Source: Escherichia phage RB16. From it: a stretch of DNA of 64,000 bases. Made by a program: the position numbers and the translations under genes. The notes under the pieces were generated by a model. The model was not told the DNA's origin, ran no database searches, and saw only the letters and a list, made by a program, of their open reading frames with translations. Positions 49,450 to 60,042 of the stretch are shown here, one piece after another. The stretch lies in sequence record NC_014467.1. The stretch is one strand, 5' to 3'. How positions within the stretch are numbered: position 1 is the stretch's first letter; each line of letters begins with the position of its first letter.

Positions 49450-49462
49450 GGTCGCCTTTTTT
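49440..49462 (+). terminator. Rho-independent terminator overlapping the stop codon
   Basis: ggcgacttgaggtcgcctttttt. Confidence 0.65.
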
Positions 49463-49465
49463 GTT

Positions 49466-49473
49466 TATAAATA
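49466..49473 (+). promoter_or_regulatory. T4-type late promoter TATAAATA upstream of gp34
   Basis: Exact TATAAATA about 32 nt before the gp34 start. Confidence 0.6.
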
Positions 49474-49504
49474 TCAGTATTGAATAAGATAAAGGAAAAC
49501 GATA

Positions 49505-52500
49505 ATGGTAGCTAAATCATTCCGCGCCACAAGTGGCCTTGATGCTGCTGGCGAAAAAGTTATCAACGTTGGTAAAGCATCCCGCTCTGTGTTGAGCGAC
49601 GGCGTGAACGTTGACTTTTTTAACGAATTTAACACGATCCAACAATACGATTCTACCCGTGGTTATGCTGCGTTTATGGCTATCATGTACGCGCGTCGTA
49701 TTTGGTACGCTCGCGCAGATATTCCATCACCAGCGGGTGCTTTCGATGAAACAAAATGGATCTCAACCCGTAACGATCCAAAATGGGTATATAACAACGT
49801 AACCAGCGCTGACGGTCTCCCTATTGAGTCCGGCACGTACTTAATGGCTGATGGTCGTTTCTCTGAACTGACCTATATTCTGCCAGATTCCCCTGTTGAG
49901 GGTGATATTATCACCATTAAAGACGGTGGCGGTCTTGCAGGTGTAAACAACCTGTTGGTTCGTTCAAACACCCGACAGATCCGTTTGCGTGATATTCAGT
50001 CAAGCTCTTATCGTCTGACTCACCCATACATGACCGTAGCGTTTATCTTTAACGGTAACTTATGGCGTGTTGCTGAAATGCGTGATAACCGCGATTCGCA
50101 GTTTGTGAACGCAACAGGCGCGGGTTCTTTCCAACTACAAGCGGGTATGACAACGTTTCGTAATAGCGGTACTGGTAAAATCACTCTTCAATTGCCGAAA
50201 TATGCAAACGATGGTGACTCTATCACTACCTACGATCTCGATAAACTCAGTTCGGTAAACGTTGCAACTTTACAGGTATATCCTGGTAGCGGTCACACTA
50301 TCACTTATGATAGCATTAACGGCGTAACCTCTGTTGCTTCACAGCGTTCAGGTTATGGTGTGTTTATCTTTGATCAGACTAACAACCGCTGGGTTGTCTA
50401 TGATGGGGATAACCGCGTTCGTCTGCGTCGTATCAGTGACGACCTGAACATGCTCCCGAATGATTATGTTTTCGTTACTCCTATTGCTGGGAACCCTCCT
50501 ACAGTACGTAACGTAACATTAACCCTCCCGCAAGATGTTGCAGAAGGGGATCGCGTGTACATCAGTATGTACATGATGGGTAAAACGCAGAACTGTACGA
50601 TCAAGGTTAAAGATGGTTCCGGTGAAACGATCCGCACCAACAAAAACATGATGCAGTTCCCACAGCGTAAGGATTATCCGCCTAATGATTGGTTCAGTGT
50701 TGACACTCTGACTTTCAACGCCGATACTGACTACCTTCCATACATGGAATTGTCGTATCTGAAAGCTACGAAAGAATGGGTAGTTGCACAATATCGCCCA
50801 ATCATTGAACGTGTCGATCCAACAAACCGTTCTCGTCTGGGTGTGATCGCGCTGGCTACACAAGCAGAAGTAAACAAAAACTTGGAAGATTTACCGTCTG
50901 ATGAACTGGCAGTAACCCCGCGCACACTGGCGAATAAAACCGCTACTGAAACGCGTCGTGGTATTGCTCGACTCGCAACGACAGCAGAAGTTAACCAGAA
51001 CACAACGGCTACTTTCTTGGATGACGTAATCGTAACGCCTAAAAAGCTAAACGAACGTACAGCAACGGAAGATCGTCGCGGTGTGCTGGAAATCGCAACC
51101 CAGGCAGAAACAAACGCGGGTACTGATGACACTACCGCAATAACGCCTAAGAAGCTCGATACGCGTCGTGCAAGCGAAACCTTAGCAGGTATCGGAAAAC
51201 TTGTCACAACGGGTGCTACGACAGCGGAGGGGGCTTTACGTGGGGATGCAGGGACTAACGTCTACAACTTCAACAACGGTGTTGATCTGATCACTCCTAA
51301 ATCGTTGAACGAGAAGACGGCGACCGAAAAATCGAAAGGTTTAGTTGTTCTGGCAACGGAAAACGAAGTTATTACGGGCGCTGCTGCTGGATCTGCTACC
51401 ATGCCGATCGTAGTCACTCCCGAAATGCTTCACCGTAAGACAGCAACAGAAACGCGTATCGGTTTGATTGAAATTGCAACTCAGGCAGAAACGAACACGG
51501 GAACCGATGATTTACGGGCGGTTACTCCGAAGAAACTGAATGATCGCAAAGCAACAGAAGCCCTTGATGGTATTATCGCGCTGGCAAGCACTTCCGAAAT
51601 TGCAGCAGGGACAGTAACCAATAAAGCGGTTGTTCCGGTGAAACTGAAAGAGTTCTTCGATGTTACTGGACATATTGCGGTTGCAACTGATGATGGTTTG
51701 ACTCAATCCGGTACTATCTGGACAACGGTTAACCTGGGGATTGCGTCTGCTACTGAAACACAGCGCGGTACTTTACGTGTTGCGACTCAGGGTGAAACTG
51801 ATGCGGGTACTCTGGATACCGTGTTCATTACGCCTAAAAAACTGCAAGCGAAGAAAGCGACGGATACCGCCGAAGGTATTATTCGTTGTGCGACTAACGC
51901 GGAAGCGGGTGCGGGTACTGCTACTAACTTGGCAATTACTCCGGCTACCATGCAGTTCTTGAACGGTACTGATCCGGCTTGGGGTGCTACAACATTGCGC
52001 CGTGGTGCGGTGTTTATCACTACCAAATCGAATACGTTCATCGGTGATAATCTGGTTGGTTCTACTCAGCCTGTAGATAGCTATCTGGAAGATTTCTACG
52101 CTGTATCGCCTCGCGGTCTGAACTTTGCTCTGCAAAACTTCTTACCGAAAATGGCAACAGCACAGAATAGCTTGAGTCTGGGCGGTGTGGTAGCTGCAAG
52201 CTGGATGCGTCGTGATGCGGATCAAACCGTAACGGGCAACAACACGTTCAACGGTACAAGCAACTTTGTTGGTAATGTAACAACTAACGGGACTCTGACG
52301 GCTAACGCTGCGGTAACTGTTAACAACACCGTAACAACAAACAATAACATTAACCAGTCTGCGAAAGCAAACACGGTTTATGCTAATACTGTTTTGAGTA
52401 CGGCAACCGCTGGAACTAAAAACTTGCTTCGTACCTTCCGTGGCGGTGTGACGGATACTACCTGGCATGAAACTGTTCAGGCAAGCGTGTATCGACTGGC

Positions 52501-53164
52501 AACAGGTACAACGGATCTGGTTGATGTTCTGACTGTAGGTGATATCAGTAACGGTGCTCTGGCGTACTACGGTACGAACATTCGCCTGAATGGTAAAGCC
52601 CTGGCTAACATCAACACTGCTGGTGATCTGTTTGTTGCAAGTGATGCGACTCCTACGGTACAATTACGAACCGCTGCAACTAACGGTTGGAACGGTGTAA
52701 CAATCAGTAACGATAACGGGACAACCACTGCAACCGTGATCAACACCCGAAACTTTACCCAGCATCTTGACAGTACCTATGTCAATACAGCGGGTGATAC
52801 TATGACTGGTGCGCTGTCAGTTAGCGTAAACGGCACGGGTGGACGCTTTACCAGTGTGAGCGGTACGGCACATGTTCAGGCGGGTGATTTCTCTGGTAAC
52901 GTCCAGAAGATGCGCTTAACTGGCATTGACGATAAGGTATTGACTGAATTCAATATCAATATCACCGATTACAACAAAGCGATGATCAACGGAAACCTGA
53001 TCTATCATGCAGGTCGTAAACCAACTCCGGCAGAAATTGGGGCGGTTGCGGTTGCGGGTTCAACTGTAGATACTCTGGTTGTTCGTGATTACATCAAAAT
53101 CGGAAACGTAAAAATCTTCGCAAATCCAACAACTAAGACTTGTGAATTTGTGTGGGAGGAATAA
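49505..53164 (+). CDS. gp34: Long tail fibre proximal subunit gp34
   Basis: 1219 aa; matches T4 gp34 as recalled (RLGVIALATQA, TATETRRGIARLATTAEVNQNT, TPKKLNERTATE, ATQAETNAGTDDTT, C-terminal IRDY..IGNV.I). T4 gp34 is 1289 aa. Confidence 0.9.
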   Translation: MVAKSFRATSGLDAAGEKVINVGKASRSVLSDGVNVDFFNEFNTIQQYDSTRGYAAFMAIMYARRIWYARADIPSPAGAFDETKWISTRNDPKWVYNNVTSADGLPIESGTYLMADGRFSELTYILPDSPVEGDIITIKDGGGLAGVNNLLVRSNTRQIRLRDIQSSSYRLTHPYMTVAFIFNGNLWRVAEMRDNRDSQFVNATGAGSFQLQAGMTTFRNSGTGKITLQLPKYANDGDSITTYDLDKLSSVNVATLQVYPGSGHTITYDSINGVTSVASQRSGYGVFIFDQTNNRWVVYDGDNRVRLRRISDDLNMLPNDYVFVTPIAGNPPTVRNVTLTLPQDVAEGDRVYISMYMMGKTQNCTIKVKDGSGETIRTNKNMMQFPQRKDYPPNDWFSVDTLTFNADTDYLPYMELSYLKATKEWVVAQYRPIIERVDPTNRSRLGVIALATQAEVNKNLEDLPSDELAVTPRTLANKTATETRRGIARLATTAEVNQNTTATFLDDVIVTPKKLNERTATEDRRGVLEIATQAETNAGTDDTTAITPKKLDTRRASETLAGIGKLVTTGATTAEGALRGDAGTNVYNFNNGVDLITPKSLNEKTATEKSKGLVVLATENEVITGAAAGSATMPIVVTPEMLHRKTATETRIGLIEIATQAETNTGTDDLRAVTPKKLNDRKATEALDGIIALASTSEIAAGTVTNKAVVPVKLKEFFDVTGHIAVATDDGLTQSGTIWTTVNLGIASATETQRGTLRVATQGETDAGTLDTVFITPKKLQAKKATDTAEGIIRCATNAEAGAGTATNLAITPATMQFLNGTDPAWGATTLRRGAVFITTKSNTFIGDNLVGSTQPVDSYLEDFYAVSPRGLNFALQNFLPKMATAQNSLSLGGVVAASWMRRDADQTVTGNNTFNGTSNFVGNVTTNGTLTANAAVTVNNTVTTNNNINQSAKANTVYANTVLSTATAGTKNLLRTFRGGVTDTTWHETVQASVYRLATGTTDLVDVLTVGDISNGALAYYGTNIRLNGKALANINTAGDLFVASDATPTVQLRTAATNGWNGVTISNDNGTTTATVINTRNFTQHLDSTYVNTAGDTMTGALSVSVNGTGGRFTSVSGTAHVQAGDFSGNVQKMRLTGIDDKVLTEFNINITDYNKAMINGNLIYHAGRKPTPAEIGAVAVAGSTVDTLVVRDYIKIGNVKIFANPTTKTCEFVWEE

Positions 53165-53169
53165 TTTAA

Positions 53170-54771
53170 ATGGCGAATAACGAATTTATGGCGTTATTCG
53201 GCCCTGATAGTTTCACGGCGAATGTGTTTTCAGAAGCAAACGCCGTGAAATATCGCCTTGTTGTCCGTGGAACGAATAACGATTCTGCGGTCAACTCGGT
53301 TGAGGTATCTATTAACGGGGCTGATATTATAAACAGACGAACACAAGCTGCTCGCGGAATTAACCTGGCTGTCATTGATGGAACAACTTTAGCATTATTG
53401 GATTACAAAGCATTCGATATGTATGGTGATCCTGCTACGAACGGGAATGCGATTAAAGACTACCTGAATTCACTTCCAGCGAACAGAATTGTGTGTTTTT
53501 ATACTTTCGATGCTATCAAAAGTGACGATGACTTTTTAGCAACAATGAGGAAAATAGGTTCTGTTGCGTGGCCTGAAACTCGGTTCTTTAATATCCCGAT
53601 CACCACAACCAATTATTCTCACCGTTCATCCTATTCAGCTATCTATTCATCTACGATGAAAAAGATTTGCATGGAAAACTTTGTCGGTGGTGCTGGTAGC
53701 CTGAAAGACAATACGACGAGTTTTGTTGAAGTTGTGTTTGATGAATTCAGTGATATCGGGGTAACTGGTATTCCAGAAAGAATGGTCGATGATGTCCAGA
53801 CATACCAGACATACCAGAATAGCGGGGATCTTTATGGCTTCCACTCTTACGGGACGTGGATTGTTGGTAGTGATGTTTTTCTGGGCGATATCTTCAAATT
53901 CACGGGTGAACTATATTGTTCGCAAGAACTTCGTGATGCAGGGGGGGAAGTTCACCTGTATATGTGGACTGAAAACAGTACCGGACAATGGATCACATCA
54001 ACCATTCTTCGAACAACTGGATTAGCCCCCGATCAGTGGCATTCATTATCAGGATATTTCACTGTTCCGTCAGATCCAGTAAACACCAAAATGGGTTCGC
54101 AGGTATATCATTATCCGTCTACCGTTAAAGTGAGGCTGGCGCAATGTCGCAACGTCCAGATCACAAAAGTACCTCGCGAAGAAATAAACCGGAATGGTGC
54201 TGCGCTTGGTGTGAACGGTGTTCGAATGCAGACACTTTCCGAAGTGGACGCAAGCGGAAATGAGAACCCGATTGATAAATTGCTTTCTCTACCCGTTTCG
54301 CCTACTGGTGTTGCAAGTGATAAGAAAATCATTTCGCATAACTTTGCTGAACTTGATTATATTGTTTCTGATCCGGTTGAATACACTTCGACAAATACAG
54401 CGGAGTACCAGTTCAAAGAATGGACTGCTACCCAGCAAGCGGCGGTAACGAAAGCATCACTAAGCAGTTATGGCTTAAAAGCTGGTGATACGATTCGTAT
54501 GCAATGCCAAATGAAACGCGATGTGAACGCAATCACTAACGGTAAAAGCGCGTATATCATAATACAGTTCTGGGACGCGAATAATACGTATATCTCAGGG
54601 ATCAACATGCGCGATGTTGGTACGATCCCTAACGTATATTCATTCTACAAAAACGAAGGGGTTATTCCTGCTGGTGCTGTTACGTTTGATTTCGGTTTAT
54701 ACCGTTATCCAAACAACACAAACATCGGTACGGTATCGGCTAAAGACGTTAAACTGTCAATCGTGAGATAA
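53170..54771 (+). CDS. Tail-fibre-locus protein in the gp35 (hinge) position; identity uncertain
   Basis: 533 aa ORF between gp34 and the gp36-like distal fibre genes; no motif recognised. Confidence 0.35.
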   Translation: MANNEFMALFGPDSFTANVFSEANAVKYRLVVRGTNNDSAVNSVEVSINGADIINRRTQAARGINLAVIDGTTLALLDYKAFDMYGDPATNGNAIKDYLNSLPANRIVCFYTFDAIKSDDDFLATMRKIGSVAWPETRFFNIPITTTNYSHRSSYSAIYSSTMKKICMENFVGGAGSLKDNTTSFVEVVFDEFSDIGVTGIPERMVDDVQTYQTYQNSGDLYGFHSYGTWIVGSDVFLGDIFKFTGELYCSQELRDAGGEVHLYMWTENSTGQWITSTILRTTGLAPDQWHSLSGYFTVPSDPVNTKMGSQVYHYPSTVKVRLAQCRNVQITKVPREEINRNGAALGVNGVRMQTLSEVDASGNENPIDKLLSLPVSPTGVASDKKIISHNFAELDYIVSDPVEYTSTNTAEYQFKEWTATQQAAVTKASLSSYGLKAGDTIRMQCQMKRDVNAITNGKSAYIIIQFWDANNTYISGINMRDVGTIPNVYSFYKNEGVIPAGAVTFDFGLYRYPNNTNIGTVSAKDVKLSIVR

Positions 54772-54792
54772 AGGGGCGAAAGCCCCTTTTTC
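54771..54792 (+). terminator. Hairpin plus T-run
   Basis: aaggggcgaaagcccctttttc. Confidence 0.55.
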
Positions 54793-54799
54793 ATAAATA
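54792..54799 (+). promoter_or_regulatory. Late-promoter variant CATAAATA
   Basis: CATAAATA about 24 nt before the 54823 start; one mismatch to TATAAATA. Confidence 0.35.
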
Positions 54800-54822
54800 C
54801 AGTCATTACAGGAGAAATTTTT

Positions 54823-56970
54823 ATGGCTGATTTGAAATTAGGCACAACGCTGGGTGGTGCGGGTATCTGGAGTGCGTCAAACCTCCCTCTGTTGCCCTCT
54901 GGCGACAGATTGACGTATAAAGGGTGGAGAGTATACACCGAAAACGATCGTCCAACAGCGGAGGATATAAACGCCCTCTCGACGATCAACGGCGGTACTG
55001 TTGCGAAGAACACCACGTTCAACCAAAGCGTGACCGTAGGTATTAACTTAACAGCGAACACGCTGTATTCAAAAAGTTATGTCGATATCACCACGGGCGG
55101 GGCTGCTCCGGGTATATTGTTTAAACGTTCTGATGTGACGGGAACACCTTCAACCGAACAGGGCATTATGCAAATCACTGGGGTTAATGCTTCCGGCGTT
55201 GCGCTGGCAACTCTGAATATTAACGCCCGTGCTGACGGTGGTAACAGGATCTATCTGAACGCATACAAAAACGGAACAACAAATACTTCCTTTGTTGTTG
55301 ATTCTGCGAATCAACAGGTATCCGTTGAACTAGGTTCTTTCCGTGTAGCCGGATCATCGACCTTCGCTGCGGTGAGCGCAACCACGTTAAACGTAAGCGG
55401 GGCAATTACTGCTAATACGGTAACTCCTACTGATTGGACAAACCACGATAACCGTTATATCACGGGTATTCCTCGCAGTATGCAGGGAAACAGTTTTGGT
55501 GCTGCTGTTGTAACCGAAAAGAACGATGTTCTGTCAGTTGGTGGTAACGTGATCGATGGGCCTTATGGTAACACTACATATTCTGGTCAGGTTTCGACAT
55601 ATCGACGCACGTTGAATAGTGGTGTATCACTGGTTCAAACTTACTATGACACAAATTCATCATGGATTCGAAGCGGTTCTGGTTCTCCTGGTGCTTGGTC
55701 TTGGTCTGCTGGCGACGCTAATGGTTGGCGACGGATTTATGATACTGCTACTCCGCCAACTCCGGCAGAAGTAGGGGCAGTAAACAAAGCTGGAGATACC
55801 ATGAGTGGTGTTTTAACACTGGCACCTATTTCTCAACCGCTTAAAACGCAAGGCGGTGGTGTTTTTGCGAATGACGGAAACGTGTATATCAATAAAGGAG
55901 GATTTGCTGGATGGATTGATGATTTGTTCTTTAAAAATACAGGAGGTGTTGTAACAGGGACAATCAACCAGGACGGCCTTAATTCTAATGTTTATTGTAC
56001 TTCTGCATTGAGCATAACCGCAACAGGTTCGAAGAATTATCTTCGTCGTTTCCGTGGTGGTAATGGCGACCAGATCTGGCATGAAACTGTTCAGGGCGGC
56101 ACGTATCGTTTAGCAACAGGTGATACAGACTCTGCAAATTTACTTACTATTGAAAGTTCTGGCAACATGATTCTTAACGGTTCTCAAGGTGGTTCATCAA
56201 CCCTATTCCTTGATGCTGACAGTAACAGTGTAGTTTGGTATCGTATGATTAATGGTACGGAAAAGGCAGTAACCTTTGCAAGTAATGACGGTGTATACCA
56301 TATCAGAACAAATAACGTCAGATCAAATACTTGGGATTTTAGAGCGGGTATGATTCTGAACCTGGGCATTTGTTCTGGTTCAGATTATGCATTGATTCGT
56401 GGTACTCCTGATGGTGGCGGTTTGGATCAGTGGCGTGAGCGTTCCTCTGGTTTACAGATCGATATGCCTAACGGTTCTACCTCAGCATATAACATCTGGA
56501 AAGCTACCGTATGGGACGCAACTCATGTTGCTGCTATGGATGTGCATATTCCAAATAATGATGGCGCACAAGCTCGCGTCCGATTGATTCACCAAAGCGG
56601 TGCATATTATCACTTTGATGGTAGCGGTCAATTTACTGCATCTGGTAATGGCAACTTCAACGATGTTTATATTCGTTCTGATGAAAGACTGAAAAGTAAT
56701 CTCAGTAAGATCGAATCTGCATTGGATAAAGTCGATTTGTTGGAAGGTGTGATCTATGATAAAGCGGATCATGTCGGCGGTGAACCTACGTCCCGCGAAG
56801 CTGGTTTGATTGCACAACAACTGCGCGAAGTATTACCGGAAGCGGTTAAAACTGGTGAAGACACCGAAAGGAATGAAATCTTAACGGTTTCTCCGACTGC
56901 GGTTATTGCCTTGCTTGTCAACGCAATTAAAGAACTCCGCGAGGAAATCAGGGAACTTAAATCCCGCTAA
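54823..56970 (+). CDS. Distal long tail fibre protein 1 (gp36-like N-terminus, C-terminal intramolecular chaperone domain)
   Basis: 715 aa; N-terminus MADLKLGTTLGG..IWSASNLPLLPSGD.LTYKGWRVYTENDRPT resembles T4 gp36; C-terminus NDVYIRSDERLKSNL...GLIAQQL resembles the S74 self-cleaving chaperone motif. Confidence 0.7.
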   Translation: MADLKLGTTLGGAGIWSASNLPLLPSGDRLTYKGWRVYTENDRPTAEDINALSTINGGTVAKNTTFNQSVTVGINLTANTLYSKSYVDITTGGAAPGILFKRSDVTGTPSTEQGIMQITGVNASGVALATLNINARADGGNRIYLNAYKNGTTNTSFVVDSANQQVSVELGSFRVAGSSTFAAVSATTLNVSGAITANTVTPTDWTNHDNRYITGIPRSMQGNSFGAAVVTEKNDVLSVGGNVIDGPYGNTTYSGQVSTYRRTLNSGVSLVQTYYDTNSSWIRSGSGSPGAWSWSAGDANGWRRIYDTATPPTPAEVGAVNKAGDTMSGVLTLAPISQPLKTQGGGVFANDGNVYINKGGFAGWIDDLFFKNTGGVVTGTINQDGLNSNVYCTSALSITATGSKNYLRRFRGGNGDQIWHETVQGGTYRLATGDTDSANLLTIESSGNMILNGSQGGSSTLFLDADSNSVVWYRMINGTEKAVTFASNDGVYHIRTNNVRSNTWDFRAGMILNLGICSGSDYALIRGTPDGGGLDQWRERSSGLQIDMPNGSTSAYNIWKATVWDATHVAAMDVHIPNNDGAQARVRLIHQSGAYYHFDGSGQFTASGNGNFNDVYIRSDERLKSNLSKIESALDKVDLLEGVIYDKADHVGGEPTSREAGLIAQQLREVLPEAVKTGEDTERNEILTVSPTAVIALLVNAIKELREEIRELKSR

Positions 56971-56971
56971 T

Positions 56972-56999
56972 TAAAAGCCCTTCGGGGCTTTTTCTTTTT
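56972..56999 (+). terminator. Rho-independent terminator
   Basis: ttaaaagcccttcggggctttttctttt. Confidence 0.65.
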
Positions 57000-57006
57000 A
57001 TAAATA
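56999..57006 (+). promoter_or_regulatory. T4-type late promoter TATAAATA upstream of the second distal fibre gene
   Basis: Exact TATAAATA about 27 nt before the ATG at 57033. Confidence 0.6.
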
Positions 57007-57032
57007 TCATAAAAGCATTTGAGGATCTAATA

Positions 57033-59492
57033 ATGGCAGATTTAAAAGCGGGTACTACCATCGGTGGTAATACTATATGGAGTCAGGCTAACTTGCCTTT
57101 GCTCCCAACTGGAAACACATTAACGTATAAAGGCTTTAAAGTCTATACCGAAAACGACAAACCGACAAAAGCCGAAATCGGTCTGGGTAACGTAACAAAC
57201 GACGCACAGGTCAAAAAGTCCGGCGACGATATGACAGGCGATCTGACGTTAAAGAACAACACACAATTGACTGTTCCGCGTCGTATTAACCTGGTTGCTG
57301 ATACTGCTGCTGTAGCGCCTGTTCTTTTGGTTACTCGTTCAGACAATAACGCGATTACTGATCCGTTTCCTTCTTCTGAAACACGCGTGTATACGTTTTT
57401 GGCAAACACAACGTCGAACACCTCAGATCCGTCTGCGGGTGCTATTTTGACTGCTCACGTTGTCAACCAGAAGCCTAGTGGTGCTGGTGCAATGGAATTT
57501 CAAGTATATGCAGCACCAAATAAGACAACTGGCGCAAGTGGTCGGTTAACATCAAAGTTTAGAATGAGCGGTGATGATGGCGCGGTTTCTCTAACAGGTA
57601 GCTCTTTTACTGTTGGAATGACAACGACAATTAACTATAATTTATACGCGAATGAACTCATTTCGAAAGGGGCAGGAAACCGTAACGTAACTATGCAAGA
57701 CACAAACGGCAACGAACTAGCTATGCTGTTTGCAGATACGGGTAAGAACCTGTATGTTCGTACTGGTGGTTCATATGTATCTCGTTTCGCTGCTGATGGC
57801 ACTCTTATTCTGGCTAACGGCTTGACTGTTCCGCGTCAGGTATTTGTTAACGGTGCTTCACTTCCAGTGAACAATGGTCAAGTTCGACTTGATACAAGCG
57901 CTGATGGAAACGCTGTTGGTGACGGTGCAACGCATCTTGGTATGAAATTAGAAGATGGGAAATATTATCATTATTTCCGTGGTGCTGGTGTGATGTACAT
58001 TGACATGAAAGGTGGAATATCTTCTTCAACCCCGTTGTATATGAATGGAGTTGATCAAGCAATACCTAAAGTTGAAATGCTATCTACTGGTGCTGCTGGT
58101 GCTAAAAACTTTTTGCGGCGGTTCCGTGGTGGTCTTGTTGATACCATATGGCATGAAACTGTTCAGGGTGGTGATTACCGATTAGCAACAGGGGATACCG
58201 ATGCGGATTATCAGTTAAGAATTACTGCTGATGGTGCTAATAGAGGTGGTTATGTATTTGGTGGTACGTTTACGGCTGATCGCGGTAATGATGGATTCAA
58301 GATCCGTTATAAACCTGATACCGAATCAGCAATGTTCCAGATCTGGAACAGGGATACATCAGTATTGAACTCTTATTTCGGATACGGGTCAAGTAATCAG
58401 GCAACAGTTAGCCTGTATAACCGTTTAGGTGATATTGGCGTTTCTACTCCAAACGCGGCGTTCCGTCTGGATAATACTACGTTAACTCTTGGTAACTCTT
58501 CATCTGCGGAAGCCAGTCAACGTGCGTTTACTATCAGGAACTGGGGTGATGGTGAATTTCGTGCTGCGGTTTTTGAAGTCAATGATGGTACTGGTTATCA
58601 TTTCTATAGTCAACGCAGATCCGATAACGTGGTTGAGGCAGCATTCTCCGGCGACCTTTATACCAACGGAACATTACGCGCACAGAACAACATAATTGTT
58701 CGTGGTAGTAATGGCCTAGAAATTCGTTCTGACGGAACCCGTCATGTTTGGTTTAAGGATAACGCGGGAACTGAAAAAGCAGTATTATATGCAGAGAATA
58801 ACGGCAGCGTAAACCTACGTACATCAAACCAACAGTATTCTCTTGCGATTGCTGATGGTATGATCCGAGCAACCGGACAACCAACTACAGGGGATTCACG
58901 AGGTCTTATTCGAGGTGCTGTTACTGGTGGTGCGTTTGCCGCATGGCGCGATCGTCCTGCTGGTTTGTTGCTTGATTGTCCAGATTCATATAATCAGGCA
59001 TACAACATATGGAAAGCGACTCACTGGGGTGTTGCTCACTTAGCATCTATGGATGTGCATAACGGCAGTAACTCCCCTATGGTACTCATGCACGTTGGTG
59101 GTGGAGAATTCAATTTTACCGCTGCTGGTACTCTTACTGTCACTGGTGGAATTTATGCTAGTGTTAACGGTGACTTTAACGATGTGTATATTCGTTCAGA
59201 TATCCGGTTGAAATCTAACCTGGTTGAACTGAAAGATGCACTCAGTAAAGTTGAACAGCTTAAAGGTTATATCTACGATAAGAAACTGAATGTCGAAGAT
59301 GAAGAACCACAGCATCGAGAAGCTGGTATTATTGCTCAGGATCTGCAAAAGGTATTACCAGAAGCAGTAAAAGAGAATGAAGATACTGGCATGTTAACAA
59401 TATCTCCTTCTGGTGTGAATGCACTTTTAGTCAACGCAATCAACGAATTGCGTGAACGTCTGGAAGCAATCGAACGGAAAATAGGGGCGTAA
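57033..59492 (+). CDS. Distal long tail fibre protein 2 (paralog; gp36-like N-terminus, divergent middle, C-terminal intramolecular chaperone domain)
   Basis: 819 aa; N-terminus MADLKAGTTIGGNTIWSQANLPLLPTGNTLTYKGFKVYTENDKPT; C-terminus NDVYIRSDIRLKSNL...GIIAQDL; shares the FRGG..D.IWHETVQGG.YRLATGDTD module with fibre 1 and gp34. Confidence 0.7.
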   Translation: MADLKAGTTIGGNTIWSQANLPLLPTGNTLTYKGFKVYTENDKPTKAEIGLGNVTNDAQVKKSGDDMTGDLTLKNNTQLTVPRRINLVADTAAVAPVLLVTRSDNNAITDPFPSSETRVYTFLANTTSNTSDPSAGAILTAHVVNQKPSGAGAMEFQVYAAPNKTTGASGRLTSKFRMSGDDGAVSLTGSSFTVGMTTTINYNLYANELISKGAGNRNVTMQDTNGNELAMLFADTGKNLYVRTGGSYVSRFAADGTLILANGLTVPRQVFVNGASLPVNNGQVRLDTSADGNAVGDGATHLGMKLEDGKYYHYFRGAGVMYIDMKGGISSSTPLYMNGVDQAIPKVEMLSTGAAGAKNFLRRFRGGLVDTIWHETVQGGDYRLATGDTDADYQLRITADGANRGGYVFGGTFTADRGNDGFKIRYKPDTESAMFQIWNRDTSVLNSYFGYGSSNQATVSLYNRLGDIGVSTPNAAFRLDNTTLTLGNSSSAEASQRAFTIRNWGDGEFRAAVFEVNDGTGYHFYSQRRSDNVVEAAFSGDLYTNGTLRAQNNIIVRGSNGLEIRSDGTRHVWFKDNAGTEKAVLYAENNGSVNLRTSNQQYSLAIADGMIRATGQPTTGDSRGLIRGAVTGGAFAAWRDRPAGLLLDCPDSYNQAYNIWKATHWGVAHLASMDVHNGSNSPMVLMHVGGGEFNFTAAGTLTVTGGIYASVNGDFNDVYIRSDIRLKSNLVELKDALSKVEQLKGYIYDKKLNVEDEEPQHREAGIIAQDLQKVLPEAVKENEDTGMLTISPSGVNALLVNAINELRERLEAIERKIGA

Positions 59493-59517: not shown

Positions 59518-60042
59518 ATGGCAATTGTTGGAGTACCTGGCTGGATCGGGTCATCTGCTGTAGCTGAAACTGGACAGCGCTGGATGTCTGCTGCGGGTAG
59601 TGCTGTTCGTATCGGTGCGCCTTTCTGGATGTCTCAAATGGCAGGTCAATCGGTATATAACATTTATATTCCAATTTACGATCGATATTATAACGGTATT
59701 CGTTATCGTGGGTGTTGGGGGACGGGTTGGAACTTCCCATATTCTAAACCTGGTTGGAACGCTACTCCTGGTGGTAGTTTTAACGGGCTGGCTTACGGGA
59801 CTTGTGTTGCAGTGCAAAACTATCTCGATGGCGAATATAGCGTATTAACTATTCAAAACGGTCCTGCTGCAAACTTCCGACTCACTACTGATGACGGCGC
59901 GGTGTTCAACTTCGTTGATACCGGAAGATATGATTCAGGTTATAGAAACTACAAAATCGATCCGACTCAACATTTTGTATGGTTCAATTATCTTAACGCT
60001 CGTGTAGGACAAATAAGGCAAGGATTGGTAGCTATAAGATAA
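59518..60042 (+). CDS. Hypothetical Trp/Gly/Tyr-rich protein at the gp38 position (possible fibre-associated protein)
   Basis: 174 aa; between the distal fibre and holin t, where T-even phages carry gp38; no sequence similarity to T4 gp38 recognised. Confidence 0.3.
   Translation: MAIVGVPGWIGSSAVAETGQRWMSAAGSAVRIGAPFWMSQMAGQSVYNIYIPIYDRYYNGIRYRGCWGTGWNFPYSKPGWNATPGGSFNGLAYGTCVAVQNYLDGEYSVLTIQNGPAANFRLTTDDGAVFNFVDTGRYDSGYRNYKIDPTQHFVWFNYLNARVGQIRQGLVAIR

Follow-up and report, generated by a model that had tools for sequence, protein, structure and literature searches.

Why do three otherwise diverged tail fibre genes of one phage carry an identical stretch of 19 nucleotides? The question is raised by a 64,000-nt stretch of Escherichia phage RB16 (NC_014467.1; the window), which contains the long-tail-fibre cluster of an RB43/GAP161-type T4-like phage of the genus Pseudotevenvirus. 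The 19-mer TGGCATGAAACTGTTCAGG (the box) has exactly three exact matches in the window, all on the plus strand, one each in gp34, a gp36-like gene and a gp37-like gene. No extra match was found in the window when up to 3 mismatches were allowed, and 0 of 100 dinucleotide shuffles reached three matches. Each copy is in frame and consists of the W-H-E-T-V-Q codons plus the first base of the following codon. A sequence-only reading of the same DNA had reported the three copies, their synonymously diverged flanks and a shared protein module around them, and had proposed that the exact core is selected at the DNA level, for example as a recombination hotspot for module exchange. The descriptive part of this reading was confirmed: the three copies lie where it placed them and all encode WHETVQ, the module is real in all three proteins by alignment and translation, and the flanks differ synonymously, with only 5 of the 17 three-way-conserved residues outside the box sharing a codon in all three genes. 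As to the cause, the box is rather likely to be an amino-acid-constrained microhomology whose uniformity is maintained by repeated recombination or gene conversion. The sequence data do not demonstrate selection for a hotspot, and homogenisation by recombination would explain them without selection.

The identity of the three boxes is non-random. The codons of the box are each the commonest synonym in the fibre genes (usage of CAT.62, GAA.88, ACT.35, GTT.45 and CAG.53), and the chance that one copy takes exactly these codons is 4.6%, while three independent copies would agree with P=4.5e-4. In a simulation that fixed the three peptide sequences and redrew the codons from fibre-gene usage, a three-way exact run of at least 19 nt appeared anywhere in the 45-codon module with P=4.5e-4, which rose to 0.01 when 30% of the codons were inherited. 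It is because the probability stays between 4.5e-4 and 0.01, given the peptides and the codon usage, that the identity is considered non-random. In the complete alignment of the 715-aa and the 819-aa paralogue, the same codon is used at 45.8% of the identical residues versus 41.7% expected, which indicates that synonymous sites are saturated between the distal paralogues.

The module around the box has the peptide K-N-x-L-R-x-F-R-G-G-x-x-D-x-x-W-H-E-T-V-Q-x-x-x-Y-R-L-A-T-G-x-T-D, which is common to all three fibre proteins, and a repeat finder returned it as a 104-nt three-copy family with 67-74% identity. In gp34 the module is part of the C-terminal third, which aligns to the solved structure of a T4 gp34 fragment (5nxf, E=5e-21). 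The position of the gp34 module there corresponds to the ...VFEVGDDTSHHFYSQR... region of T4 gp34, in the beta-prism/beta-helix part of 5nxf, where the HMMER alignment is weak; against T4 VFEVGDDTSHHFYSQ the alignment is poor. This region of T4 gp34 forms a triple beta-helix interrupted by beta-prism domains (PMC5537660). By analogy, FRGG and WHETVQ would be structural core residues of a trimeric fibre domain. A degenerate scan of IMG/VR (TGGCAYGARACNGTNCARG) gave more than 118 loci, most of them with the same module in tail-fibre-like contexts, and the carriers include many contigs of about 30-37 kb (putatively P2-like, judged by size) and some of 66-172 kb. Among annotated phages, tblastn of the module found Yersinia phage genomes of about 32-49 kb, such as vB_YpM_46 (32 kb, annotated tail fiber protein), and also gp37 of Phi1 and JSE, long tail fibre genes of Serratia phage CHI14, Aeromonas phages and all Pseudotevenvirus. 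The P2-like and other T4-like carriers use other codons freely, and 31 different 19-mers encode WHETVQ-G outside the genus. Six gp36 alleles of 721-723 aa (PF-CE2, EC-F1, Entb_46, EcL22g, Invicta and HMGUkp1) are without the WHETVQ module, which indicates that the module is dispensable in the gp36-like fibre. No mention of WHETVQ was found in the searchable literature.

The box was then compared in the fibre loci of 27 members of the genus (the window, L001-L005 and L124-L144), out of at least 62 genus genomes, and in one Karamvirus (L145). All five degenerate sites of the box vary in these relatives (ACT/ACG/ACC, GTT/GTA, CAG/CAA, CAT/CAC and GAA/GAG). Among the 19 distinct gp34 sequences of a 20-genome set, ACT was found in 11 and ACG in 8, GTT in 18 and GTA in 1, and CAG in 18 and CAA in 1; the gp34 ACG variant occurs in 10 of the 27 genomes of the extended set. 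Lw1 gp34 reads GTACAA, as do the gp37 genes of GuL6 and Xman. Other variants are TGGCACGAAACTGTACAAG in GuL6 gp37, ...ACCGTACAAG in Xman gp37, ...CAAC in EcRAM-01 gp36 and the peptide WHEAVR in RB43-type gp36. The mean codon diversity of the gp34 box is 0.145 versus a gene mean of 0.227, and 26% of 5-codon windows are equally or less diverse. Three exact boxes are present in 12 genomes, two in 5, one in 6 and none in 4 (RB43, CfP1, GuL6 and Xman). Together with the 31 non-genus 19-mers, these variants and missing copies indicate that the box is under no strict DNA-level constraint.

The variation within the genus is, at the same time, unevenly distributed over the module. Module sequences were clustered at 88% identity outside the WHETVQ box and the upstream R-x-FRGG box, which gave 24 genus and 16 non-genus lineages; the lineages are not independent, and the non-genus set was chosen by presence of the WHETVQ peptide. 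The exact 19-mer is present in 14 of the 24 diverged genus lineages. Relative to the expectation from codon usage, the codon diversity in the genus was 0.17 for H, 0.38 for E, 0.51 for T, 0.36 for V and 0.75 for Q (mean 0.44), and its mean was 0.38 for R-x-FRGG and HETVQ together. In contrast, the 14 other conserved columns, including YRLATG-x-TD, gave values of 0.59-1.42 with a mean of 1.0 (Mann-Whitney test against these columns, p=2e-4 for HETVQ and p=6e-5 for both boxes). The FRGG codons are similarly uniform across the genus lineages, with TTC in 23/24, CGT in 21/24 and GGT in 23/24. Since the columns are compared within the same sequences, relatedness cannot explain the low diversity of the boxes. 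In the 16 non-genus lineages the box columns (mean 1.06) were no different from the other conserved columns, which indicates that the effect follows the recombining gene pool rather than the peptide. The homogenisation is therefore specific to certain columns and to one gene pool, and the boxes would have either a shallower genealogy, through recombination or conversion, or selected synonymous sites.

Junctions between alleles were called by pairwise two-state Viterbi segmentation of 20 and then 27 genomes, which detects recent events only. In the gp37 alignment, the window and Lw1 differ from Miller and IME-CF2 upstream and are then near-identical to them for about 300 nt. The switch to near-identity begins at TTCCGTGGTGGT for the window gp37, so that its junction with the Miller/IME-CF2 type lies at the FRGG box (alignment columns 1146-1158; -27 from the box start), and at the box itself for Lw1 gp37. 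RB43 gp37 has the Miller sequence upstream and stays identical up to the end of the box; right after CAG (+18) it parts sharply from Lw1. Relative to the box start, the segmentation placed junctions at -26, -13, -3 and +18 in gp37 and at -4 and +19 in gp34, and PF-CE2 versus four alleles gave a junction at +20.

Patches centred on the module also link different fibre genes. Exact tracts of 31-57 nt centred on the box occur between genes whose flanks are unrelated, whereas no long recent transfer between gp34, gp36 and gp37 was found above about 72% identity outside the module. The window gp36 and leB gp37 share a 48-nt perfect tract over box copy 2 in which 15 codons are identical (P=1e-6 for the single pair and about 3e-4 when 276 lineage pairs are taken into account), GAP161 gp34 and leB gp37 share a 31-nt exact tract, and leB gp36 and leB gp37 are 88% identical over 105 nt. 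In gp34 of GAP161, leB, Maroon, PF-CE2, Cronuts and others (codons 983-992), a haplotype of GATACGATC plus the box is identical to the leB and Maroon distal-fibre genes, including a Thr-to-Ile replacement, and may be a short conversion tract that gp34 received from gp36 or gp37. The Karamvirus Enterobacter phage EnC07 (L145, 4375-7092) has a gp37 with the exact 19-nt box, and this gene is a chimera of gp36-like and gp37-like sequence joined inside the module. The part upstream of the module has about 65-70% identity to Pseudotevenvirus gp36 alleles, and its similarity to gp37 is no better than random; the part that begins with the module matches Cronuts gp37 at 89% identity over 546 nt. The EnC07 gene and GAP161 gp37 have 19 identical codons in common (P=2e-8). 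In another gene pool, a tail-fibre block of about 2.7 kb is common, at about 80% identity, to the 164.7-kb contig L078 (5843-8521; putatively T4-like, judged by size) and to the 19-45-kb contigs L082, L072, L097 and others (putatively P2-like, again by size), with the box inside the block and not at its ends.

These exchanges do not show the module to be a hotspot. Mosaic structure extends over the whole of the fibre genes, where distinct junction positions number 152 in gp34, 94 in gp36 and 104 in gp37. The 60-nt interval from FRGG to past WHETVQ holds 2, 0 and 4 junctions in gp34, gp36 and gp37, versus gene-wide means of 2.5, 2.2 and 2.45, and intervals that reach or exceed the observed count make up fractions of 0.76, 1.0 and 0.22, so that no enrichment is seen among the recent events called in the 27 genomes. 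The causal part of the sequence-only reading is thus supported in pieces only. For DNA-level selection, the non-random identity and the reduced box diversity in the genus (0.44 versus 1.0 times the expectation) stand, but the six codons vary, the gp34 box is unexceptional and the non-genus value is 1.06 times the expectation. For a recombination hotspot, the junctions, exact tracts and EnC07 chimera at the module stand, but the junction density is not raised. With codons that vary in relatives and junctions that do not cluster, most of what the sequence-only reading had itself named as evidence against its proposal is observed.

A dedicated recombination hotspot, whose exact sequence would be kept by selection for cassette exchange and host-range evolvability, is accordingly an unlikely explanation. 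It would account for the low synonymous diversity found specifically at the two boxes within the genus, for the mapping of junctions and chimera to the module, and for the occurrence of the same box in a second genus (Karamvirus EnC07). However, variants at all five degenerate sites persist in whole clades (ACG in gp34; GTACAA in Lw1 gp34 and GuL6/Xman gp37), the box is unexceptional among gp34 orthologues, and just 12 of the 27 genomes have three copies, while 4 are without any and six gp36 alleles are without the module. The missing junction enrichment and the position of the box within, not at the edge of, the transferred 2.7-kb block also speak against a hotspot, and second-order selection for evolvability would generally be weak. 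A more specific form of the idea, in which the R-x-FRGG and WHETVQ boxes are a selected pair of "splice points" that are nucleotide-identical across gp34, gp36 and gp37 in the Pseudotevenvirus/Karamvirus pool, is likewise doubtful. If it were true, N-terminal shafts and C-terminal receptor-binding parts would be exchanged between fibre genes, and synonymously recoded boxes, for example TGGCACGAGACCGTACAAG, would lower host-range evolvability.

Translational selection would place optimal codons at residues that are critical for folding of the trimeric fibre, through accuracy or co-translational folding. The codons of both boxes are indeed all commonest synonyms (CAT, GAA, ACT, GTT, CAG, TTC, CGT and GGT), and the homogenised state is always the preferred codon. 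Other, equally conserved residues of the module are seldom encoded by the preferred codons, however (ACT in 4/21 at T31 and 6/22 at T34, CGT in 7/20 at R28), and the bias needed is far above the weak overall bias (ACT in 18/23 versus a usage of.35, CGT in 23/24 versus.48). The 106-172-kb contigs with the module (putatively T4-type, judged by size) use other codons, with ACA in L074, GAG-ACG-GTT-CAA in L078 and CAC-GAG-ACG in L060, which may count against translational selection as well. Translational selection also leaves the 31-57-nt exact tracts and the chimera unexplained, and little probability is given to it.

Coincidence, that is, an invariant peptide, preferred codons and residual shared ancestry with no ongoing process, has a smaller share still. 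For one pair of copies, 6 identical codons in a row over WHETVQ have P=0.0175, 64 kb were scanned for anything odd, and a single copy has the 4.6% chance of these codons given above. The three-way probability is nevertheless 4.5e-4 to 1e-2 when position in the module is allowed for, and neither the 19-mer in 14/24 diverged genus lineages nor the column test (p=2e-4) fits a chance agreement. That the whole module was duplicated recently and its amino acids then changed fast is ruled out by the 1.0-fold diversity at the other conserved codons and by the paralogue codon identity of 0.458 versus 0.417.

A sequence-specific element is very improbable, whether a recombinase crossover site as in Gin/Cin/Min or shufflon systems, the target of a homing endonuclease, a hotspot of the Chi-like or origin-linked kind, or an RNA structure. 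Several identical short sites in fibre genes do recall the Min and shufflon systems. RB43-type genomes are rich in homing endonuclease genes (PMC2993671). However, many relatives whose locus has this layout have no box or an altered one. Its individual forms were each rejected. The three copies are in direct orientation, and no recombinase domain was found in the fibre ORFs (open reading frames) or the larger ORFs tested between 45.6 and 63.6 kb. From gp34 to the holin, the locus is compact in 27/27 genomes and has no extra ORF, and no endonuclease domain was found in the tested ORFs of the same 45.6-63.6 kb. The Chi octamer GCTGGTGG has 0 matches in the 64 kb, and the FRGG box reads CGTGGTGG. 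The origin-dependent hotspot of the T4 ori(34) type involves a MotA-dependent middle promoter; the corresponding pattern TGCTTYA-N10-14-TANNNT occurs at 49557 and 50335 only, and none is near the boxes. The three 79-nt contexts of the box are no more stable as RNA than shuffles (z +0.49, +1.53 and +0.38) and have no common structure, and Rfam gave no match at the boxes at E<=1.

The explanation that we favour, an amino-acid-constrained microhomology kept uniform by recombination or conversion, would work as follows. The box is the DNA of WHETVQ, the most invariant peptide in a structural module of about 43 residues that occurs once in each of the three long-tail-fibre genes of Pseudotevenvirus phages, and also in gp37 or tail-fibre genes of other T4-type genera and P2-like prophages. 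Amino-acid constraint would fix FRGG and WHETVQ, so that no other near-identical tracts as long as these would be left between fibre genes that are saturated elsewhere. These microhomologies may now and then be paired by the recombination machinery of the phage, either in a mixed infection or between paralogues of the same genome, which would leave crossovers or short conversion patches. Each event would re-copy the box of the donor, so that synonymous sites become homogenised in the gene pool, towards the commonest codons, and the homogenised box would keep the homology ready for the next event in a feedback. Host-range selection would retain functional chimeras that are joined at a structurally equivalent point. 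In this way the box would be a mosaic joint among many others, left behind by recombination, and no dedicated signal.

Several points weigh against this explanation. The homogenisation of two boxes but not of the equally conserved YRLATG 9 nt downstream is not fully explained by it. Junctions are no denser at the box than over the whole genes, so a higher frequency of recombination there is not shown. By the homology requirements of T4 and E. coli, a tract of 19 nt is on the short side for homologous recombination to be efficient. Selection on codons may play a part, as all codons of the box are the preferred synonyms. The statistics come from non-independent lineages and from 27 of at least 62 genus genomes, and the junctions are read from sequence alone.

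Since tail-fibre mosaicism sets phage host range, the FRGG-to-WHETVQ module is a candidate natural joint for fibre engineering, which is common to proximal and distal fibre genes and found across genera. It would be useful for Klebsiella, Enterobacter, Cronobacter and Citrobacter phages under development for therapy. A strikingly identical short DNA box can come from amino-acid constraint plus recurrent conversion, which calls for caution in scans for "DNA-level selection".

The closest DNA match of the fibre region is Klebsiella phage iPHaGe-KPN-12i (92.5% identity over 84%), and the gene order, as annotated in relatives, is gp34, gp35, gp36 and gp37, then a gp38-like adhesin and the T holin. 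The RB43-type locus has a duplicated g37 (Trojet et al. 2011, PMC3157838). The coordinates of the boxes, modules and genes are collected in the table.

Table. Positions of the box, the FRGG box, the shared module and the host genes in the window.
Feature	Position	Strand	Evidence and remarks
19-nt box, copy 1	52463..52481	+	gp34 codons W987-Q992 and first base of codon 993; exact match, translation
19-nt box, copy 2	56077..56095	+	715-aa gp36-like distal fibre gene; exact match, translation
19-nt box, copy 3	58149..58167	+	819-aa gp37-like distal fibre gene; exact match; junctions at edges (genus alignment)
FRGG box TTCCGTGG(C/T)GGT (F-R-G-G), gp34	52436..52447	+	alignment; 27 nt upstream of box copy 1
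FRGG box, gp36-like gene	56050..56061	+	alignment
FRGG box, gp37-like gene	58122..58133	+	alignment; window-type versus Miller/IME-CF2-type junction maps here
43-codon shared module, gp34 (GTKNLLRTFRGGVTDTTWHETVQASVYRLATGTTDLVDVLTVG)	52412..52540	+	repeat family D1; HMM match E=2.5e-24
43-codon shared module, gp36-like gene	56026..56154	+	repeat family D1; HMM match
43-codon shared module, gp37-like gene	58098..58226	+	repeat family D1; HMM match
gp34, long tail fibre proximal subunit	49505..53164	+	ORF of 1219 aa; T4 gp34 structures 5nxf/5nxh E=5e-21; annotation of relatives
gp36-like distal fibre subunit	54823..56970	+	ORF of 715 aa; C-terminal Peptidase_S74 intramolecular chaperone domain
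gp37-like distal fibre subunit	57033..59492	+	ORF of 819 aa; C-terminal Peptidase_S74 domain

Some further features of the locus were observed. The gp35-like hinge protein (53170-54771, 533 aa) matches the Pfam family ILEI (interleukin-like EMT inducer, PF15711) over residues 62-132 with E=1.5e-12, which is unexpected for a fibre connector. In the gp38-like protein (59518-60042), the match is confined to the 40-residue Gp38_N domain (E=6e-22) and the remainder is unrelated to Gp38_N; the RB43 gp38-like protein has the same pattern (Trojet et al. 2011, PMC3157838). Within gp34, at 50927-51843, several direct repeats of about 37-98 nt (families D3, D5 and D11) encode ...ATE.R.G..E.ATQAE.N.GTDD...TPKKL... 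and are probably the alpha-helix-containing repeats described for T4 gp34 and gp12 (PMC5537660). The gp37-like gene holds an exact 16-nt direct repeat, TTGACTGTTCCGCGTC, at 57267-57282 and 57822-57837 (family D17); each copy translates as L-T-V-P-R, and the fibre shaft may thus contain an internal repeat. In Citrobacter phage IME-CF2 (L127, 6801-9072), the gp36-like gene is annotated as three ORFs (70, 218 and 408 aa), a split that may reflect frameshifts or sequencing errors. A T-rich stretch with a TATAAATA cassette is similar before gp34 (49454-49476) and before the gp37-like gene (56987-57009; family D9), where a terminator-like hairpin at 56973-56992 precedes it; we take this cassette to resemble a T4 late promoter.

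How, then, does the box compare with known systems? The Gin/Cin/Min and shufflon inversion systems likewise have short identical sites inside several fibre-gene coding segments. Unlike in those systems, no recombinase gene was found at this locus, the copies all face the same way and have no meaningful dyad symmetry, so the box does not belong to them. Concerted evolution of paralogues through gene conversion is similar in its local homogenisation, sharp boundaries and variable tracts centred on a conserved core; the donors here, in contrast, may be co-infecting phages, and the homogenisation is incomplete, as RB43 has ACG in its gp34 copy and ACT in its gp37 copy. Horizontal tail fibre mosaicism among P2 H, Mu, P1, lambda and T-even phages was reportedly described by Haggård-Ljungquist et al. 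in 1992 and Sandmeier in 1994. The same module in T4-type gp37 and P2-like tail fibre genes fits this picture, as does the 2.7-kb block, but such mosaicism concerns large blocks, whereas the signal here is a 19-nt core, with patches a few tens of nucleotides long, in three genes of a single genome.

Tail fibre mosaicism is common (Petrov et al., PMC2993671). In T-even g37/g38, short motifs are conserved in otherwise hyperplastic fibre and adhesin genes, and exchanges in or near the motifs lead to chimeric fibres (Tétart 1996, 1998, as summarised in Trojet et al. 2011, PMC3157838). As far as that summary describes it, shuffling of this type (Tétart 1998, J Mol Biol 282:543) agrees with the present case in having a motif conserved at the protein and DNA level, junctions and chimeras at the motif, and the same superfamily and locus. 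It differs in that the motifs here are R-x-FRGG and WHETVQ in the genus Pseudotevenvirus and are known from sequences, not crosses. The motif here is also common to proximal gp34 and both distal paralogues and crosses genus borders, whereas the Tétart system, as recounted there, concerns g37/g38 only. Junctions are not preferentially located at the motif here, by the counts per 60 nt given above. The conserved-motif shuffling of T-even g37/g38 is the closest precedent. Motif-based shuffling of host-recognition genes is thus already known, and what is new here is its probable occurrence in another genus, with a different motif and in three fibre genes.

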